Positions 13,344-61,238 of a stretch of 64,000 nt of DNA are shown here, piece after piece. Each line of letters starts with the position of its first letter. The first letter of the stretch is position 1. A program made the translations under genes and the position numbers. This DNA comes from Candidatus Shapirobacteria bacterium (GTDB taxonomy: Bacteria; Patescibacteriota; Microgenomatia; UBA12405). The notes beneath the pieces were generated by a model. That model was not told the DNA's origin. It made no database searches and worked only from the letters and a program-made list of their open reading frames with translations. The DNA lies in contig JBAZYN010000001.1 of NCBI GenBank assembly GCA_041659325.1, forward strand, positions 302,819-366,818. Direction: 5' to 3'.

Positions 13344-14153
13344 ATGAACTACATGTCAGAAATCATCAATGAATTCGGTGCCATTATCAAAAGGAGAGAA
13401 TTGTTGTGGCAAATGGTTGGCCGAGAAGTTAAATCCCGATATAAACAATCAATCCTGGGCTATTTCTGGGTAATTCTAAATCCGCTAGCACAGATGATGG
13501 TTATGAGCTTTGCTTTTTCTCTGATTCTTCGCATCCCCACTAATGCCGCCGGCAACATCCCATATTCTATTTTCCTCTTTGTCGGCCTCCTACCCTGGAA
13601 CCTGTTTTCTAACTCCCTAACCTTTGCCTCGAACTCCCTGGTTGGATCAGCTCCTCTCATTACCAAGATTTATTTTCCCAGAACAATCCTCGTCATCTCT
13701 ACCATTATTGCCAAAATTATTGACTTCCTTTTTGCCCTGTCCATTCTGGTGGTCTATATGGTCATTTACCAAATCCCGATTAACACCAATATCCTCTGGG
13801 TTGTCCCCATCTTCTTAATCCAACAGATTTTCACCATGGGTTTATCCTTATTTTTTGCCGCCGCTAATCTTTTGTACCGCGATATCCAATACCTCTTAAG
13901 CCTTATTATCACCTTGTGGATGTATGTTACTCCCGTCATTTACCCCGCCGATCTGGTCCCGGAAAGATTAAGATTTGTCTTTCAGCTTAACCCGATGGCA
14001 GTTATCATCAACGCCTACCGCCAAACCATCCTGGGTGGGGGACCCCCCAATTACTCCAGCATCTTTATTGCCCTACTCGTTTCCCTCATTACCCTTTTGC
14101 TTGGCCTCTCTTATTTTAAATCCCGGGAAAAAATCTTTGCAGACAATATTTAG
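13344..14153 (+). CDS. ABC-2 type polysaccharide export permease (Wzm/TagG-like)
   Basis: RELLWQMVGREVKSRYKQSILGYFWVILNPL is the canonical ABC-2 permease N-terminus. Six TM helices, 269 aa. Confidence 0.75.
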   Translation: MNYMSEIINEFGAIIKRRELLWQMVGREVKSRYKQSILGYFWVILNPLAQMMVMSFAFSLILRIPTNAAGNIPYSIFLFVGLLPWNLFSNSLTFASNSLVGSAPLITKIYFPRTILVISTIIAKIIDFLFALSILVVYMVIYQIPINTNILWVVPIFLIQQIFTMGLSLFFAAANLLYRDIQYLLSLIITLWMYVTPVIYPADLVPERLRFVFQLNPMAVIINAYRQTILGGGPPNYSSIFIALLVSLITLLLGLSYFKSREKIFADNI

Positions 14154-14217
14154 CGCATTAGCACTTTAGAACTTTGGAACGTTAGAGCTTTAGTGCCGTA
14201 GATCTTTAAACAAAAAT

Positions 14218-14585
14218 ATGAATTTTACTAATCTAAAAATCTGGGAAGAAAGTCACAATCTGGCTCTAAAATTTACAAACTTTGTAAACAATTTCCAAAA
14301 ACAGAAACCTTCGGAATCATCTCACAAATACAAAGATCATCTTCGTCAGTTCCCGCCAACATTGTTGAATGATTTGGCAGAAAGAGCAATAAGGAATTTA
14401 TTCAATTCCAATATCAAGCCAAAGGCTCTTTAATAGAAACCGAACGTTTTTTAATACTTATAAACTATCTAAATTATGCCAACAAATTAACAATAGAAAA
14501 TTTATTAAACGAATACGAAATACTAGCTAAAATGCTAAACTCCTTTATCACTCAGCAAAAAAACAAATCTCATGTCCAAATTTAA
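14218..14585 (+). pseudogene. Decayed four-helix-bundle protein gene (23S rRNA intervening-sequence protein / Avd-like family). It has a frameshift in an A4 run near 14268-14271 and a single in-frame TGA at 14370-14372.
   Basis: Frame 1 from ATG 14218 gives FTNLKIWEESHNLALK. Frame 0 from about 14238 gives KIYKLCKQFPKTETFGIISQIQRSSSSVPANIVE[TGA]FGRKSNKEFIQFQYQAKGSLIETERFLILINYLNYANKLTIENLLNEYEILAKMLNSFIT. This matches the family consensus ...SQxRRAAxSIxxNIAEGFGRxSxKEFxxFLxIAxGSxxExxT... The TGA sits at the invariant Gly. Confidence 0.6.
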
Positions 14586-15411
14586 CGCTCCAAAGCTCCA
14601 AAACTCTAATACTCTACCGCTCCAAAGTTCTAACACTCTAACGCCCCAAAGTTCCAAAGTTCCAAAGCTCCAACCCTCCGACGTTCCAATCATCCAATTC
14701 TCCCACGTCACCAAAGACTTTAGTCTTCAAAACCAAAAAACATTCAAAGAGTTTTTACCTGCCCTGTTTTTAGGTGAAAAAACCGTCAACAAATTCACCG
14801 CCCTTTCCGACATCTCTTTTGAAATCCAAAGAGGGGAGTGTGTCGGCATCATCGGCCCAAACGGTAGTGGCAAATCAACCATTCTAAAGCTTGTAGCCGG
14901 GGTAATGTCGCCTACCTCCGGAAAAGTTACGGTAGAAGGAAAAATCTCCCCTCTCATCGAGCTTGGTGCTGGCATGCATCCGGAACTATCAGGCAAAGAA
15001 AACATCTACCTCAACGGCTCCATTCTCGGCCTGAAAAAATCAGAAATAAATAATTATCTTCAAAGTATCATTGACTTTGCCCAACTAGTGGATTTTATTG
15101 ACCAACCGGTTAAACATTACTCATCCGGCATGTACATGCGCCTGGCCTTTGCCGTCGCCGTCCACGTTGATCCAGAAATTTTAATTGTCGACGAAATCCT
15201 GGCTGTTGGCGATTCTGCCTTTCAGGAAAAATGCTTCCAAAAGATGGAAGAATTCAAAGCCAAAGGAGTTACCATACTTTTTGTTTCCCACTCCATGACC
15301 CAAGTCCAATCCTTTTGTTCCCGGGTCATATACCTAAACCACTCAAAATTAGTCGACCAGGGAACTCCGGAAAAAATTATCGAAAGATATCAAACTGACC
15401 AAGTCAAATGA
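14572..15411 (+). CDS. ABC transporter ATP-binding protein (Wzt/TagH-like, short form without C-terminal carbohydrate-binding domain)
   Basis: Walker A GPNGSGKST. Signature LSGGQ-like YSSGMYMRLAF. Walker B ILIVDE. H-loop SHS. An unusual ~45 aa low-complexity N-terminal extension (NAPKLQNSNTLPLQSSNTLTPQSS...) is encoded by tandem CTCCAAAG-like repeats, so the real start is uncertain. Confidence 0.75.
   Translation: MSKFNAPKLQNSNTLPLQSSNTLTPQSSKVPKLQPSDVPIIQFSHVTKDFSLQNQKTFKEFLPALFLGEKTVNKFTALSDISFEIQRGECVGIIGPNGSGKSTILKLVAGVMSPTSGKVTVEGKISPLIELGAGMHPELSGKENIYLNGSILGLKKSEINNYLQSIIDFAQLVDFIDQPVKHYSSGMYMRLAFAVAVHVDPEILIVDEILAVGDSAFQEKCFQKMEEFKAKGVTILFVSHSMTQVQSFCSRVIYLNHSKLVDQGTPEKIIERYQTDQVK
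14575..14690. repeat. Degenerate tandem octamer repeats (C/T)TCCAAAG(C/T) at the 5' end of the ABC ATPase gene. A reverse-complement copy (ctttggaacgttagagctttag) lies at 14170-14195.
   Basis: ccaaagctccaaaactc...cgctccaaagttctaacactctaacgccccaaagttccaaagttccaaagctccaacc...acgttccaat. Intergenic 14171-14195 actttggaacgttagagctttagtg is the reverse complement of a ctctaacg(tt)ccaaagt-type unit. Confidence 0.6.
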
Positions 15412-59095: not shown

Positions 59096-60207
59096 AACAC
59101 CTGGTAATCGATGCCAGACTATATGGCAGCACCCACACCGGTATCGGCCGATATACCAAAAATCTTCTTGTTGCTCTGACAAAAATTCCCGACTTTCAAA
59201 AAGTCAAAACCACTTTAATTGTCTATCCTGAGCTCCTGGATGAAATCAAAAAAGACCTGGGCACTAATTTTTCATACGTCATCACAAATATCCGACATTA
59301 CTCGCTCCAGGAACAGTTATTTCTGCCCTTTTTGCTATACCGGCTCAAACCTAACTTAGTCCATTTTACCCACTTTAATAAACCCCTTTTATATTTTGGA
59401 AAATCACTAGTTACTATCCACGACCTTATCAAACACTTTTTCCATGGCAGACAAGCCACGACTAAAAATTCATTTATGTATTGGCCAAAATATCTGGCCT
59501 ATCTTTTGGTAACCCACATTGTCATAAAAACCAGTGCCATTATAGTTCCGAGTAATTTTTGGAGAAATTATCTAATCAAAAATTATCATGTCTCCCCAAA
59601 AGACATAACTACCACCTACGAAGCCGTCGACCCGAAATTTATTACCAATTACGGATTACCGATTACTAATTACAAAAATTATATTCTGTATACCGGCAAC
59701 CTTTATCCCCACAAAAATATCCGGATAGTAATCGAAGCTCTGAAAAAAATACCTGACTTAAAATTAAAAATCATTTGCGCCAGAAGTATATTTTCTCAGC
59801 GGGCCCAACGACTAATTCAAAAATACCAAATAGAGCAGCAAGTAGAATTTTTGGGCTATGTACCGGACAGCGATTTTAAAAATATTTACCAACATGCTCT
59901 AGCTCTGGTTCATCCTTCTCTTATGGAGGGCTTTAGCCTGACCGGGCTAGAAGCAATGGCCCTGAATTGTCCGGTAATTTCCTCAAACGCCAGTTGCCTC
60001 CCCGAGATTTATGGAGACAAATCAGTCCTCTATTTTGATCCCTACGATCCCGATGATCTGGTTATAAAAATCCAACAACTCCGGTCATCCGACAGGCTTC
60101 GTCAAAAATTGATCAAGTGGGGGCATCTACAAGTTGCCAAATATTCCTGGTCAAAAACAGCCATTCAAACACTAGACCTTTACTCAAAGATACTTTCTAC
60201 AAAATGA
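59092..60207 (+). CDS. Glycosyltransferase family 4
   Basis: ALVHPSLMEGFSLTGLEAMALNCPVISSN. Confidence 0.65.
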   Translation: MKHLVIDARLYGSTHTGIGRYTKNLLVALTKIPDFQKVKTTLIVYPELLDEIKKDLGTNFSYVITNIRHYSLQEQLFLPFLLYRLKPNLVHFTHFNKPLLYFGKSLVTIHDLIKHFFHGRQATTKNSFMYWPKYLAYLLVTHIVIKTSAIIVPSNFWRNYLIKNYHVSPKDITTTYEAVDPKFITNYGLPITNYKNYILYTGNLYPHKNIRIVIEALKKIPDLKLKIICARSIFSQRAQRLIQKYQIEQQVEFLGYVPDSDFKNIYQHALALVHPSLMEGFSLTGLEAMALNCPVISSNASCLPEIYGDKSVLYFDPYDPDDLVIKIQQLRSSDRLRQKLIKWGHLQVAKYSWSKTAIQTLDLYSKILSTK

Positions 60208-61238
60208 AAACACCCAAGGTTGCCCTGTTTTATGATTGGCTCAACCAATGGGGAGGAGCCGAAAGGGTACTTTTAGATCTCCATAAACTATACCCAGACG
60301 CGCCTATTTACACCTTGGTTTACAATCCGGAAAAAACCGCTTGGCTCAAAAACGCAAAAGTTATTACCCCAGATTTTTTGTTCAAATACCCTTTTTTTTA
60401 CCCCTTAATGGCGCAACAGCTCGATTTTTCCGATTATGATATTGTTATCTCGACCACCTCATATTTTGGTCATTGCCTCCTGACCAAACCACCCACCAAA
60501 TATTTTTGTTATTGTCATACTCCAAACCGCTATGTCTGGCATAAAAATTATCTAAAGTTCTATCGCCCTACCGATTATATTTATGGTCAACGACCGGATT
60601 TTTTTATCGCCAGTTCGAAAAATTCACAACAACGGATTTTAAAATTTTACAATCGGGATTCAACACTAATTTATCCCGGCATTGATACCAATAAATTTGT
60701 CCCCAAAGTTACAGATTACAGATTACAGATTACAGATTACTTCCTCATTGTTTCCCGTCTGGTCCCTCACAAAAAAATTGATCTGGCCATTCGCGCTTGT
60801 CTTCAATCTCACCGGCATTTATACATCGCCGGCACCGGCCGTTGTCTTGGACAACTTACTGCCCTGGCTTCCCAAAGCCCATTAATCAAATTCCTGGGTT
60901 ATGTTTCCGAAAAAAAATTACTTAATCTATACCAAAACTGCCGGGCTCTTATTCATCCCCAAGAAGAAGATTTCGGACTTACCGCCCTTGAAGTTCAAAG
61001 TTGCGGTAAGCCAGTAATTGCTTTCAACCAAGGTGGCAGCCTGGAAACAATAATAGATGGGAAAACCGGATTATTTTTCAATAATCAATCCACAGAATCG
61101 CTGACGGAGGCTCTGGAAATTTTTGACTCGTATAATTTCAAGCCAGCAGATTGCCGGCGCAACGCCCTCAGATTTTCAACCCAATCATTTATGCTAAACT
61201 TTAGAAATTACATAAACTCAGTATGCAGTTACCGGTAA
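60204..61238 (+). CDS. Glycosyltransferase family 4, containing a heptanucleotide tandem repeat (candidate phase-variable)
   Basis: Start set at the ATGA overlap (MKTPKVALF). ALIHPQEEDFGLTALEVQSCGKPVIAFN. (TTACAGA)x4.6 at 60709-60740. Confidence 0.6.
   Translation: MKTPKVALFYDWLNQWGGAERVLLDLHKLYPDAPIYTLVYNPEKTAWLKNAKVITPDFLFKYPFFYPLMAQQLDFSDYDIVISTTSYFGHCLLTKPPTKYFCYCHTPNRYVWHKNYLKFYRPTDYIYGQRPDFFIASSKNSQQRILKFYNRDSTLIYPGIDTNKFVPKVTDYRLQITDYFLIVSRLVPHKKIDLAIRACLQSHRHLYIAGTGRCLGQLTALASQSPLIKFLGYVSEKKLLNLYQNCRALIHPQEEDFGLTALEVQSCGKPVIAFNQGGSLETIIDGKTGLFFNNQSTESLTEALEIFDSYNFKPADCRRNALRFSTQSFMLNFRNYINSVCSYR
60709..60740. repeat. Perfect heptanucleotide tandem repeat (TTACAGA)x4 plus TTAC inside the GT4 coding sequence
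   Basis: Direct reading: gTTACAGATTACAGATTACAGATTACAGATTACttcc. Confidence 0.9.

Follow-up and report, generated by a model that had tools for sequence, protein, structure and literature searches.

Why does an ABC glycan exporter carry a broken gene between its permease (wzm) and its ATPase (wzt), and what is to be made of an in-frame TGA that falls exactly on the most conserved glycine of that gene? These questions arise from a 64-kb stretch of a Candidatus Shapirobacteria genome (64,000 nt in full, hereafter the window). The first-pass annotation described the insert as an orphan Avd-like four-helix-bundle (FHB) gene and offered two explanations for its state, namely an ordinary pseudogene (hypothesis A) or import from a genetic-code-25 donor in which TGA encodes Gly (hypothesis B). 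Here we examine the locus together with related loci. We interpret the region, with good though not complete confidence, as a recently inactivated, native, operon-embedded cassette in which the FHB gene is bracketed by inverted 8-nt tandem arrays. The cassette sits exactly between the wzm stop and the conserved wzt start of a standard-code, Shapirobacteria-type CPR host.

Results

An FHB gene between two repeat arms

The end of wzm and the start of wzt (Table 1) agree with the gap of about 420 bp that was originally reported. Within it, frame 2 reads MNFTNLKIWEESHNLALK from 14218, and the remainder of the FHB gene continues in frame 1 as IYKLCKQFPKTETFGIISQIQRSSSSVPANIVE, a stop and then FGRKSNKEF, ending at the TAA at 14583-14585. 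Once one base is restored and the TGA is taken as Gly, the repaired translation has 122 aa. It matches PF05635 over profile positions 2-106 of 106 (E=6.5e-37; 126.4 bits against a cut-off of 33.8) and TIGR02436 (E=1.2e-35; 122 bits against a cut-off of 24), and these scores, far above the cut-offs, bear out the family first proposed for the insert. A tblastn search of the 64-kb window with the repaired protein found no second copy.

Table 1. Coordinates of the wzm–FHB–wzt features within the window
Feature	Position	Strand	Evidence or detail
wzm (ABC-2 permease)	13344..14153	+	PF01061, E=1.9e-15
5' arm, 7-8 tandem octamers, each starting TAG	14151..14209	+	Inverted-repeat search; TRF period 8
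Predicted long-range RNA stem, ~14164-14205 with ~14615-14670, enclosing the FHB frame	14164..14670	+	
FHB pseudogene (PF05635/TIGR02436, S23p/IVP family)	14218..14585	+	Codons 1-17 in one frame, rest in another
Lesion 1, frameshifting 1-nt deletion	14266..14271	+	CTCT-AAAATTT vs CTCTCAAAATTT in L001
Lesion 2, TGA for GGA at invariant Gly52 (end of helix 2, motif NIxEG-xGR)	14370..14372	+	
wzt (ABC ATPase)	14572..15411	+	PF00005, E=2.7e-23
3' arm, ~13 tandem octamers, CTCCAAAG / CTCTAACG type	~14583..14690	+	Direct and inverted repeats, TRF

Inverted octamer arrays lie on both sides of the FHB frame, a feature absent from the first-pass annotation. The units of the 5' arm read TAGCGCAT TAGCACTT TAGAACTT TGGAACGT TAGAGCTT TAGTGCCG TAGATCTT TAAAC.., where the wzm stop codon itself (14151-14153) provides the first TAG, and because the period is 8, TAG recurs in all three reading frames. 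The octamer pattern TAGNNCNNTAGNNCNNTAG was matched 8 times against 0.19 expected in a pattern search. The 3' arm is the inverse of the 5' arm, a CTAAAG-type array. The inverted arms span 44-59 nt with a complementarity of only 71-77%, and repetition in the window is imperfect: units have 63-78% identity to the reference unit, and just one adjacent pair is an exact duplicate. A perfect heptamer array is also found within a nearby glycosyltransferase gene, and a GATTACA tract occupies 60709-60740.

Folding of the region predicts a long-range stem between the arms, present in both the minimum-free-energy (MFE) and the centroid structure, with an MFE of -91.5 kcal/mol against -72.7 +/- 4.7 for shuffled sequences (z = -4.0; 0/100 shuffles as stable). 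The arm type is conserved among relatives (that of the window's 5' arm is shared with L001, L002, L084, L088, L109, L145, L146 and L159), and the lengths of both arms co-vary, with copy numbers of 4-5 units in some relatives and 10-13 in others. A sense-strand selection test on 72 cassettes counted 70 G:U mismatches against 117 A/C mismatches; this lack of a G:U excess means that a sense RNA hairpin is not specifically favoured over DNA-level or antisense structure. An RNA stem formed by the arms may nonetheless serve as a model, one drawn by analogy with the systems considered in the Discussion.

Part of the cassette now belongs to wzt

The wzt ATG falls within the 3' end of the FHB gene, and the 3' arm encodes Wzt residues 1-39, an N-terminal extension ahead of the conserved core (PIIQFSHVTKDF), which starts at 14689. 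Arm units that would place TAA in the wzt frame are altered. In empty-site relatives, Wzt starts M-x-K-P-I-I-E-F directly after the wzm stop, and the ATG is placed as in the window in L002, L088, L109, L138, L141, L144, L145, L146 and L159. Part of such an element has thus become coding sequence of a CPR glycan exporter, and the arms survive because the cassette is now joined to wzt.

Such an arrangement could also mean that the cassette now serves wzt as a domesticated regulatory leader and that the FHB frame no longer matters. The arms would then set the level of Wzt, either by the structure or processing of the mRNA or by changes in repeat number, where a single 8-nt unit would shift the wzt frame and make glycan export phase-variable. 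The start of wzt, with the ATG and first 39 codons, does lie inside the cassette, the units have been edited so that the wzt frame stays open, arm copy number varies widely in relatives, a heptamer array is present in the glycosyltransferase gene mentioned above, and SSR- and RNase III-dependent phase variation is known in Haemophilus (PMC12721329). However, the 8-nt units inside the wzt 5' coding region are imperfect, so that slippage among them should be rare, and the differences in copy number are differences between lineages. In relatives, moreover, purifying selection on the FHB gene is strong, which argues that the protein matters there. We consider a leader function improbable.

The same junction in relatives

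The nearest FHB homologues (70-83% identity) are intact genes of Shapirobacteria-type CPR bacteria and occupy this very wzm|wzt junction. L002, L084 and L088-L092 repeat the gene order wzm-FHB-wzt and share the TPR gene upstream of it, and the purifying selection on intact copies is strong (dN/dS 0.04-0.10). The junction could be scored at 69 Wzm-relative loci: it is empty at 38 (TAA, then ATG directly), holds an FHB gene at 10 and carries other small accessory inserts at 21. The premise that wzm and wzt normally adjoin therefore holds for the 38 empty loci and fails for the 10 in which an intact FHB cassette lies exactly there.

FHB-filled loci are scattered across the Wzm+Wzt tree, and the cassettes at the junction have at least three arm types. 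In some pairs, the FHB genes are more alike than the host genes (0.91 vs 0.77 for L084-L109). The coexistence of empty, FHB-filled and other-insert junctions marks this position, as judged from sequence comparison, as an insertion hotspot at which FHB cassettes have arrived more than once; repeated loss, instead of repeated gain, could account in part for the patchy distribution, and FHB and host identities do correlate (r = 0.51). The FHB gene is a recurrent resident of the junction, not an isolated relic.

Recent inactivation of the FHB gene

The copy in the window is not an intact family member, as it carries both a 1-nt deletion and a TGA. The frame slip first placed at an A4 run resolves, on comparison with the closest intact gene, L001 (CTCTCAAAATTTAC against CTCT-AAAATTTAC in the window), into a 1-nt deletion at 14266-14271. 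At the second lesion, L001 and L002 carry GGA where the window has TGA, and the column is Gly in 18 of 18 close homologues aligned, so the stop does fall exactly on the invariant glycine, as the first reading had it. Hypothesis A is thereby supported: the gene is a pseudogene, inactivated by the loss of 1 nt and by a GGA>TGA transversion.

Could the gene instead be intact in the organism, with both lesions being errors of assembly or sequencing? A 1-nt length change beside an A4 run is a typical homopolymer error, and the window is probably metagenome-assembled, all relatives being MAGs or metagenome contigs. However, a G>T substitution, as in the second lesion, is less likely to be an error than an A-run indel. 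In addition, the window copy has two private radical changes, L65Q and D84Y, both at otherwise invariant columns, and no such change is seen among the 13 nearest homologues. Its dN/dS against L001 is raised as well (0.146, compared with the range given above among intact copies themselves), and decayed copies are known elsewhere, namely the truncated homologues P0059, P0070 and P0089 and a frameshifted X. citri copy. An artefact is thus quite unlikely, and we conclude that the FHB gene was inactivated recently.

Fold and relation to Avd

The fold was tested on the nearest intact homologue, P0001, which is 83% identical to the window FHB and whose AF2 model has four helices and a pLDDT of 93.5. 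This model superimposes on XCC0516 (2gsc) with a TM score of 0.90, an rmsd of 1.1 and 27-28% identity, and on BT_0352 (2RLD) with a TM score of 0.79. Avd (4dwl) is matched with a TM score of 0.80 at 13% identity, and DGR RNP chains (8ub-prefixed entries) match too. Identities reach 27-30% for non-DGR S23p structures compared with 13-16% for Avd. On the modelled fold, the window protein belongs to the S23p/IVP branch; the earlier label of an orphan Avd is misleading, both because this branch is nearer and because the gene recurs at the junction.

The fold shared with Avd, together with weak PF22296 bAvd matches in some close homologues, would fit a DGR remnant, that is, an Avd gene left behind after the loss of RT, TR and VR. 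The repaired translation itself, however, has no PF22296 match at E<=0.01 and lies closer to the S23p structures. Pfam, run on 57 of the 60 window ORFs of at least 150 codons (wzm and wzt in a separate search), found no reverse transcriptase (RVT) domain; the scanned ORFs encode glycosyltransferases, methyltransferases, radical SAM proteins and similar. A TR/VR pair was likewise absent from the 64-kb window, where direct repeats of at least 40 nt were conserved glycosyltransferase motifs only, and no RT was seen at the related junction loci. The original statement that neither an RT nor DGR repeats lie nearby is upheld, and descent from a DGR is very unlikely.

The TGA codon and the genetic code

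TGA terminates 16 of the 60 window ORFs of at least 150 codons, wzt among them, so the host uses TGA as a stop; yet this fact gives no sign of import. Hypothesis B, in which the gene came from an SR1/Gracilibacteria donor (TGA = Gly) and is silent in this host, draws on the coincidence that the stop is TGA and the position a Gly codon. This coincidence is no more than chance would give. In L001, a single substitution can turn 50 of the 120 codons into a stop, by 64 mutational paths in all, and 14 of these paths (22%) reach invariant columns. About 1 in 5 nonsense mutations should therefore strike an invariant codon; GGA>TGA belongs to the 64 single-step routes.

The comparison with relatives refutes the import. 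The nearest homologues are standard-code, Shapirobacteria-type organisms with the gene at the same syntenic junction and GGA, GGT, GGC or GGG at Gly52. Across distinct FHB genes, the codon is GGN in 66/66 and TGA in 0/66. The GC content of the cassette (31%) is only modestly lower than that of the window (37%), and the frameshift is a lesion that no alternative code accounts for. We therefore give the code-25 import practically no credence.

Programmed recoding, with a +1/-1 frameshift at the slippery-looking A-run plus read-through of the TGA to yield a full-length protein, is just as implausible, since no intact orthologue needs any recoding, the private radical substitutions suggest relaxed constraint, and we know of no precedent for two independent recoding events within one 122-codon gene.

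The cassette anatomy recurs across the FHB family

The wider comparison covered 80 loci from many phyla, plus Xanthomonas. Flanking inverted repeats beat all 40 controls, taken as positions from the same locus, in 65 of 87 FHB genes (mean score 38 vs 16). Of the FHB genes, 48% are preceded and 36% are followed by a tandem array, against 2.8% for 428 other ORFs; 62 of the 72 arms have a period of 7. Both neighbours are co-directional for 65/74 FHB genes against a baseline of 179/307. The resulting anatomy is an array, the ORF and the inverse array, co-directional within an operon. At the level of sequence, FHB genes in many phyla thus share inverted tandem arrays, mostly of heptamers, and co-directional operon placement. 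They repeat, outside rRNA, the architecture of 23S rRNA intervening sequences. The XCC0516 orthologue of Xanthomonas, for instance, is inserted between accB and accC and flanked by inverted arms of GGGAATC type, and 23S_rRNA_IVP genes have been described as inserted between cmr3 and cmr2 (PMC3936711).

Outside the Coxiella IVS, no literature linking FHB/S23p genes to flanking tandem arrays was found in a search that covered few subscription journals, so an earlier description may exist; specifically, no such link is made in PMC4692102, PMC4679880 (searched by family names) or the portion of PMC6344855 covered. The repeat-bracketed FHB cassette is a widespread kind of operon insert for which the literature covered gave no description.

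Discussion

The closest parallel to the cassette is the 23S rRNA intervening sequence (IVS) of Leptospira, Coxiella burnetii, Brucella and Xanthomonas. Both contain a PF05635 protein gene, and in both the ORF is nested in stem-forming inverted repeats, the stem of the window cassette being a predicted one. In Coxiella, an S23p ORF that is decaying lies in an RNase III-cut stem, with 2-3 tandem GACAGAT heptamers upstream of the ORF (PMC4990558); the window cassette resembles it in having short-period tandem repeats just upstream of the ORF, in a decay-prone ORF whose stem persists and in a GC content lower than that of the host. The differences are equally clear. The window cassette lies between two ABC-exporter protein genes and outside any rRNA gene (no Rfam family reached threshold in the window, and a tRNA scan was also empty), its arms are long octamer arrays with TAG in each 5' copy, and translation of its 3' arm adds residues to the downstream protein. 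Excision by RNase III is a feature of the IVS, and would apply to the window cassette by analogy.

A second parallel is provided by Avd (PDB 4DWL, 8UB7; PF22296). It forms a pentameric barrel whose RNA partner is a stem-loop immediately downstream of the Avd gene, and all five protomers contact this RNA (bioRxiv 10.1101/2023.10.23.563531). Since Avd binds an RNA stem-loop, a role in binding RNA stems is suggested for FHB proteins. The likeness is one of the four-helix-bundle fold; sequence identity is low, and the window has neither RT nor TR/VR nor a PF22296 match. The closest solved structures, XCC0516 (2GSC) and BT_0352 (2RLD), are stand-alone pentamers of the 'S23 ribosomal protein family'. 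The XCC0516 orthologue is, like the window FHB, inserted between coupled genes with inverted tandem repeats on both sides, although the Xanthomonas arms are G-rich heptamers (GGGAATC) without a stop codon and the X. campestris copy is intact. The window arms are also alike in kind to the bacterial intergenic tandem heptamers (GGGAATC in Xanthomonas, GGGGAYT in Nostoc, TAACTGA in Beggiatoaceae and cyanobacteria), from which they differ in having a period of 8, not 7. Xanthomonas carries roughly 186 GGGAATC arrays. Its convergent array pairs are able to form stem-loops (PMC4692102), and PMC6344855 gives the function of such heptamers as unknown.

We envision that the native cassette would be co-transcribed with wzm and wzt and that its arms may pair in the transcript, as in the 23S rRNA IVS, whose stem is cut by RNase III. 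A pentameric FHB protein might, instead or as well, bind the stem, much as Avd binds its RNA stem-loop. Where the FHB gene is intact, its translation would be coupled to wzt initiation via the overlapping stop and start. The element itself may be a selfish or accessory insert with an ORF that the host can do without and that decays, as the Coxiella ORF does.

A broader reading, which we offer tentatively and consider less probable than not by some distance, joins these observations. FHB genes would be the coding 'master copies' of widespread hairpin elements whose arms are inverted heptamer arrays (octamers in this CPR clade) and which enter operons co-directionally, at junctions of tightly coupled genes (rRNA helices, accB|accC, cmr3|cmr2, wzm|wzt). 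The stem in the host transcript would be bound by the FHB pentamer and/or removed by RNase III, and ORF-less arrays and convergent pairs would represent non-autonomous or decayed derivatives. If true, the ubiquitous 7-nt periodic intergenic repeats would gain both an origin and a partner protein.

That the gene is an ordinary pseudogene removes an attractive but wrong story of cross-code transfer. More is to be gained from the cassette. The FHB family is very large, with 38,358 representatives after clustering at 50% identity, and has solved structures but no known function outside DGRs. The co-occurrence of FHB genes and arrays in a fixed anatomy makes questions on both testable: whether the FHB pentamer binds the arm duplex, whether the stem is cut from mRNAs as it is from 23S rRNA, and how the arrays are made and move. 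One junction locus, L102, has an FHB gene of ~50% identity with heptamer arms, and there the original wzt ATG is retained after the arm.

The four-helix-bundle gene between wzm and wzt

The first-pass annotation placed a gene of the four-helix-bundle (FHB) family between wzm and wzt, split over two frames and interrupted by an in-frame TGA, and our three-frame reading of 14150-14620 reproduces that translation. Restoring one base and translating TGA as glycine gives a product of 122 residues that matches PF05635 (23S_rRNA_IVP) end to end (E=6.5e-37) and TIGR02436, 'four helix bundle protein' (1.2e-35), which bears out the family assignment. The window holds no further FHB copy. The fold is confidently predicted as a four-helix bundle (pLDDT 93.5) with Gly52 at the end of helix 2; its structural neighbours are XCC0516 (2gsc; TM 0.90, 27-28% identity) and Avd (4dwl; TM 0.80, 13%). 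The surrounding window (1-64000) is a single very large glycan-biosynthesis cluster, with about 25 glycosyltransferases, about 10 methyltransferases, radical-SAM enzymes, MBOAT/AlgX, sugar-nucleotide enzymes and an initiating Bac_transf, and contains no tRNA, rRNA or other Rfam family.

Coordinates of the features discussed
Feature	Position	Strand	Content
wzm	13344-14153	+	PF01061; flanks FHB upstream
5' arm	14151-14209		TAGCGCAT TAGCACTT TAGAACTT TGGAACGT TAGAGCTT TAGTGCCG TAGATCTT
FHB, starting frame	from 14218	+	MNFTNLKIWEESHNLALK
FHB, continuation in other frame	to TAA 14583-14585	+	IYKLCKQFPKTETFGIISQIQRSSSSVPANIVE*FGRKSNKEF...
wzt	14572 (ATG)-15411	+	PF00005; flanks FHB downstream
3' arm	about 14583-14690		CTCCAAAG, CTCTAACG, TTCCAAAG and similar
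GT4 heptamer tracts	60709-60740 and 59641-59673		
Octamer fragment	60552-60570		CTAAAGTTCTATCGCCCTA
Region with the wzm remnant, contig L001	1186-1282		YFKSREKIF.DNI*
Xanthomonas XCC0516 orthologue	L173 / L176 2420-2875		between accB and accC

The two proposed lesions, a 1-nt slip in an A-run and the TGA, are confirmed by the closest intact gene (contig L001, 83% protein identity), which has CTCTCAAAATTTAC against CTCT-AAAATTTAC in the window, and GAAGGATTTGG against GAATGATTTGG; GGA also stands at the latter site in a second homologue-bearing locus, L002. The suggestion of a pseudogene thus holds, as a 1-nt deletion plus GGA to TGA relative to L001, and the finding as first posed is an ordinary pseudogene. 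The stop does lie, as noted earlier, on the family's most conserved glycine: Gly52 is without variation among close homologues, and its codon is GGN in 66/66 distinct FHB genes compared. This placement is unremarkable, since a single substitution would turn any of 50 of the 120 codons into a stop, and of the 64 such routes 14 (22%) land on invariant columns. Because the window copy carries two private radical changes in otherwise invariant columns (L65Q and D84Y; 0 in the 13 nearest homologues), and its dN/dS against L001 is 0.146 versus 0.04-0.10 among intact copies, the gene was strongly constrained until recently and is decaying now.

Import from a donor using genetic code 25, in which TGA encodes glycine, had been offered as a more interesting source of this stop; that reading is wrong. 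The nearest homologues (70-83% identity) come from Candidatus Shapirobacteria or metagenome contigs, and GCA_016188545.1 and several metagenome contigs carry an intact FHB gene at the same site, downstream of wzm and overlapping the wzt start, with the same TPR-containing gene upstream as in the window. Standard-code relatives carry GGA at this codon, the outcome that the first-pass annotation had itself named as speaking against import, and the window reads TGA as stop, as previously assumed: it ends 16/60 ORFs of at least 150 codons, wzt included. A DGR remnant is likewise rejected, since, in agreement with the first reading, Pfam scans of 57 of those 60 ORFs found no reverse transcriptase and a repeat search no TR/VR-like repeats in the window, and the protein is structurally nearer to XCC0516 and BT_0352 (2rld) than to Avd.

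Repeat arms and the start of wzt

The gap between wzm and wzt had been ascribed to the FHB gene, which is indeed there, but the inverted octamer arms flanking it were overlooked. The 5' arm comprises 7-8 octamers, beginning at the stop codon of wzm and ending 9 nt upstream of the FHB ATG, and the 3' arm about 13 inverse-type octamers from the FHB stop onward; the arm pattern TAGNNCNNTAGNNCNNTAG occurs 8 times versus 0.19 expected. The transcript is predicted to fold into a long-range stem, arm to arm, enclosing the reading frame (MFE -91.5 kcal/mol versus -72.7 +/- 4.7 in shuffles, z = -4.0). The 8-nt period spreads the 5'-arm TAGs over all three frames; the first of them is also the stop of wzm. 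In the wzt frame the 3' arm is open and read through: the wzt ATG lies inside the FHB 3' end, Wzt residues 1-39 are arm-encoded, and wzt depends on the cassette (both arms plus the FHB ORF) for its start codon. Units of the 3' arm with a would-be in-frame TAA are changed to CTACCG or CCAACG, which is why the arms are complementary at only 71-77%.

In L001, wzm is represented ahead of the 5' arm by no more than its final 13 or so codons, and the genes further upstream are unrelated and on the opposite strand; the remnant reflects either a wzm deletion, a cassette moving with a piece of wzm, or a chimeric short Logan contig.

The wzm-wzt junction in relatives

Scanning for Wzm relatives gave 80 metagenome loci (70-84% identity), with both genes placeable in 69. 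The junction is empty in 38/69 (...ATATCTAAATGACCAAGCCAATCATCGAGTTC, the wzm stop followed directly by wzt M-x-K-P-I-I-E-F), 10/69 hold an intact FHB cassette, an eleventh FHB locus being cut off, and 21/69 hold other inserts. The latter include NYN-domain genes (PF01936; L084), sometimes two in tandem, a RhuM/Fic gene (L002), a DUF5674 gene and its 90-aa partner ORF, DUF3800 and a GNAT-like ORF, all without hairpin arms; the few bases between wzm stop and wzt start are a hotspot for small accessory genes besides FHB.

Three arm types occur at the junction. The window's group has octamers of the TAGAACTT type; a second type, octamers of TCTAGAAC / CACCAGAG, accompanies FHB proteins that are 55-60% identical; the third, AGAGTAT / ATACTCT heptamers, is that of locus L102 with a roughly 50%-identical FHB, where the original wzt ATGACCAAACCTATCATC is kept directly behind the arm. 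Arm lengths co-vary: the two arms of a cassette either both have 4-5 units or both have 7-13. FHB-filled loci are dispersed in a Wzm+Wzt tree, adjoining empty ones; FHB identity correlates moderately with host-gene identity (r = 0.51), and some FHB pairs are closer than their host genes (e.g. 0.91 vs 0.77). These comparisons are most simply read as a hotspot of insertion, entered more than once by FHB cassettes, with vertical descent, losses and some exchange thereafter.

Arm-flanked FHB genes across phyla

Our survey covered 80 loci in GTDB species genomes (CPR, Cyanobacteria, Bacteroidota, Chloroflexota, Acidobacteriota, Alphaproteobacteria, Planctomycetota and others); the family as a whole clusters to 38,358 representatives at 50% identity. 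Flanking inverted repeats exceeded all 40 same-locus positional controls at 65/87 FHB genes (mean score 38 versus 16 in controls). Tandem arrays (at least 75% self-identity, short period) occupy 48% of upstream and 36% of downstream FHB flanks, compared with 2.8% for 428 other ORFs from those loci. Of 72 arms, 62 have a period of 7, and units vary by locus (GGAGACA, GGGAGTA, AGGCAGT, GGTGAAT and others), the two arms being complementary within each locus. About 30 nt separate the end of the 5' arm from the ATG, and about 4 nt lie between the stop and the 3' arm. Arms are G-rich 5' and C-rich 3' in 66/72 cases; for an inverted repeat, such fixed polarity is true on both strands. In 65/74 cassettes both neighbours are close by and co-directional, versus 179/307 ordinary gene triplets.

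As a directed test of the pattern, the orthologue of the crystallised XCC0516 was examined; it lies between accB and accC. GGGAATC GGGAGTG GAGAATC GGGAATC stands directly past the stop of accB, and the inverse array reaches up to the accC ATG. In X. citri a deletion of 2 nt has frameshifted the gene, altering its C-terminus and making it overlap accC; it is another decaying FHB gene. GGGAATC is the Xanthomonas heptamer catalogued by Rehm et al., 70-75 convergent pairs included (PMC4692102), a text in which 'S23', 'four helix' and 'four-helix' do not occur. Bacterial heptamer repeats are called unexplained in PMC6344855, and a full-text literature search, its coverage excluding most subscription journals, returned no link between them and the FHB family.

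A proposed intervening element in mRNA operons

The cassette is embedded in an operon, syntenic and under purifying selection in relatives, and lesioned in the window. We propose that it would be transcribed together with the operon, its arms pairing, and that it is probably an intervening-sequence-like selfish or accessory element whose FHB protein would act on its own stem. This proposal draws on three analogies. In 23S rRNA, a same-family ORF sits in a stem excised by RNase III; in Coxiella, GACAGAT heptamers stand in tandem ahead of the ORF, and that ORF is decaying (PMC4990558). Avd, the only characterised relative of the family, is pentameric, and all five protomers hold an RNA stem-loop encoded directly downstream of Avd's own gene (bioRxiv 10.1101/2023.10.23.563531). 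23S_rRNA_IVP genes have also been noted in cas operons, e.g. between cmr3 and cmr2 (PMC3936711). The S23p intervening sequence is already known; what is new here is an element of the same kind outside rRNA, with tandem-repeat arms.

Instead of a sense RNA hairpin, the arms may form a DNA-level or antisense structure. Arm mismatches in the survey cassettes show no excess of sense-strand G:U (70, versus 117 A/C), so that a bottom-strand hairpin would be better paired. The window has now lost the FHB protein and keeps a repeat-rich, structured leader joined to wzt.

Tandem heptamers also lie inside two adjacent GT4 glycosyltransferase genes of the window, both in the linker ahead of the C-terminal Rossmann domain. 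One tract, at 60709-60740, is a perfect GATTACA x4.6 (translated ..VTDYRLQITDY...), the other, at 59641-59673, a degenerate ATTACCA/ATTACGG (..ITNYGLPITNY...); since one 7-nt unit gained or lost would frameshift the gene, these genes may be phase-variable. The glycosyltransferase gene holding the GATTACA array also contains the only arm-pattern match outside the cassette, a three-unit fragment of the 3'-arm octamer type with 13 nt common to the arm of locus L145, which could be chance (0.19 matches expected) or a relic.
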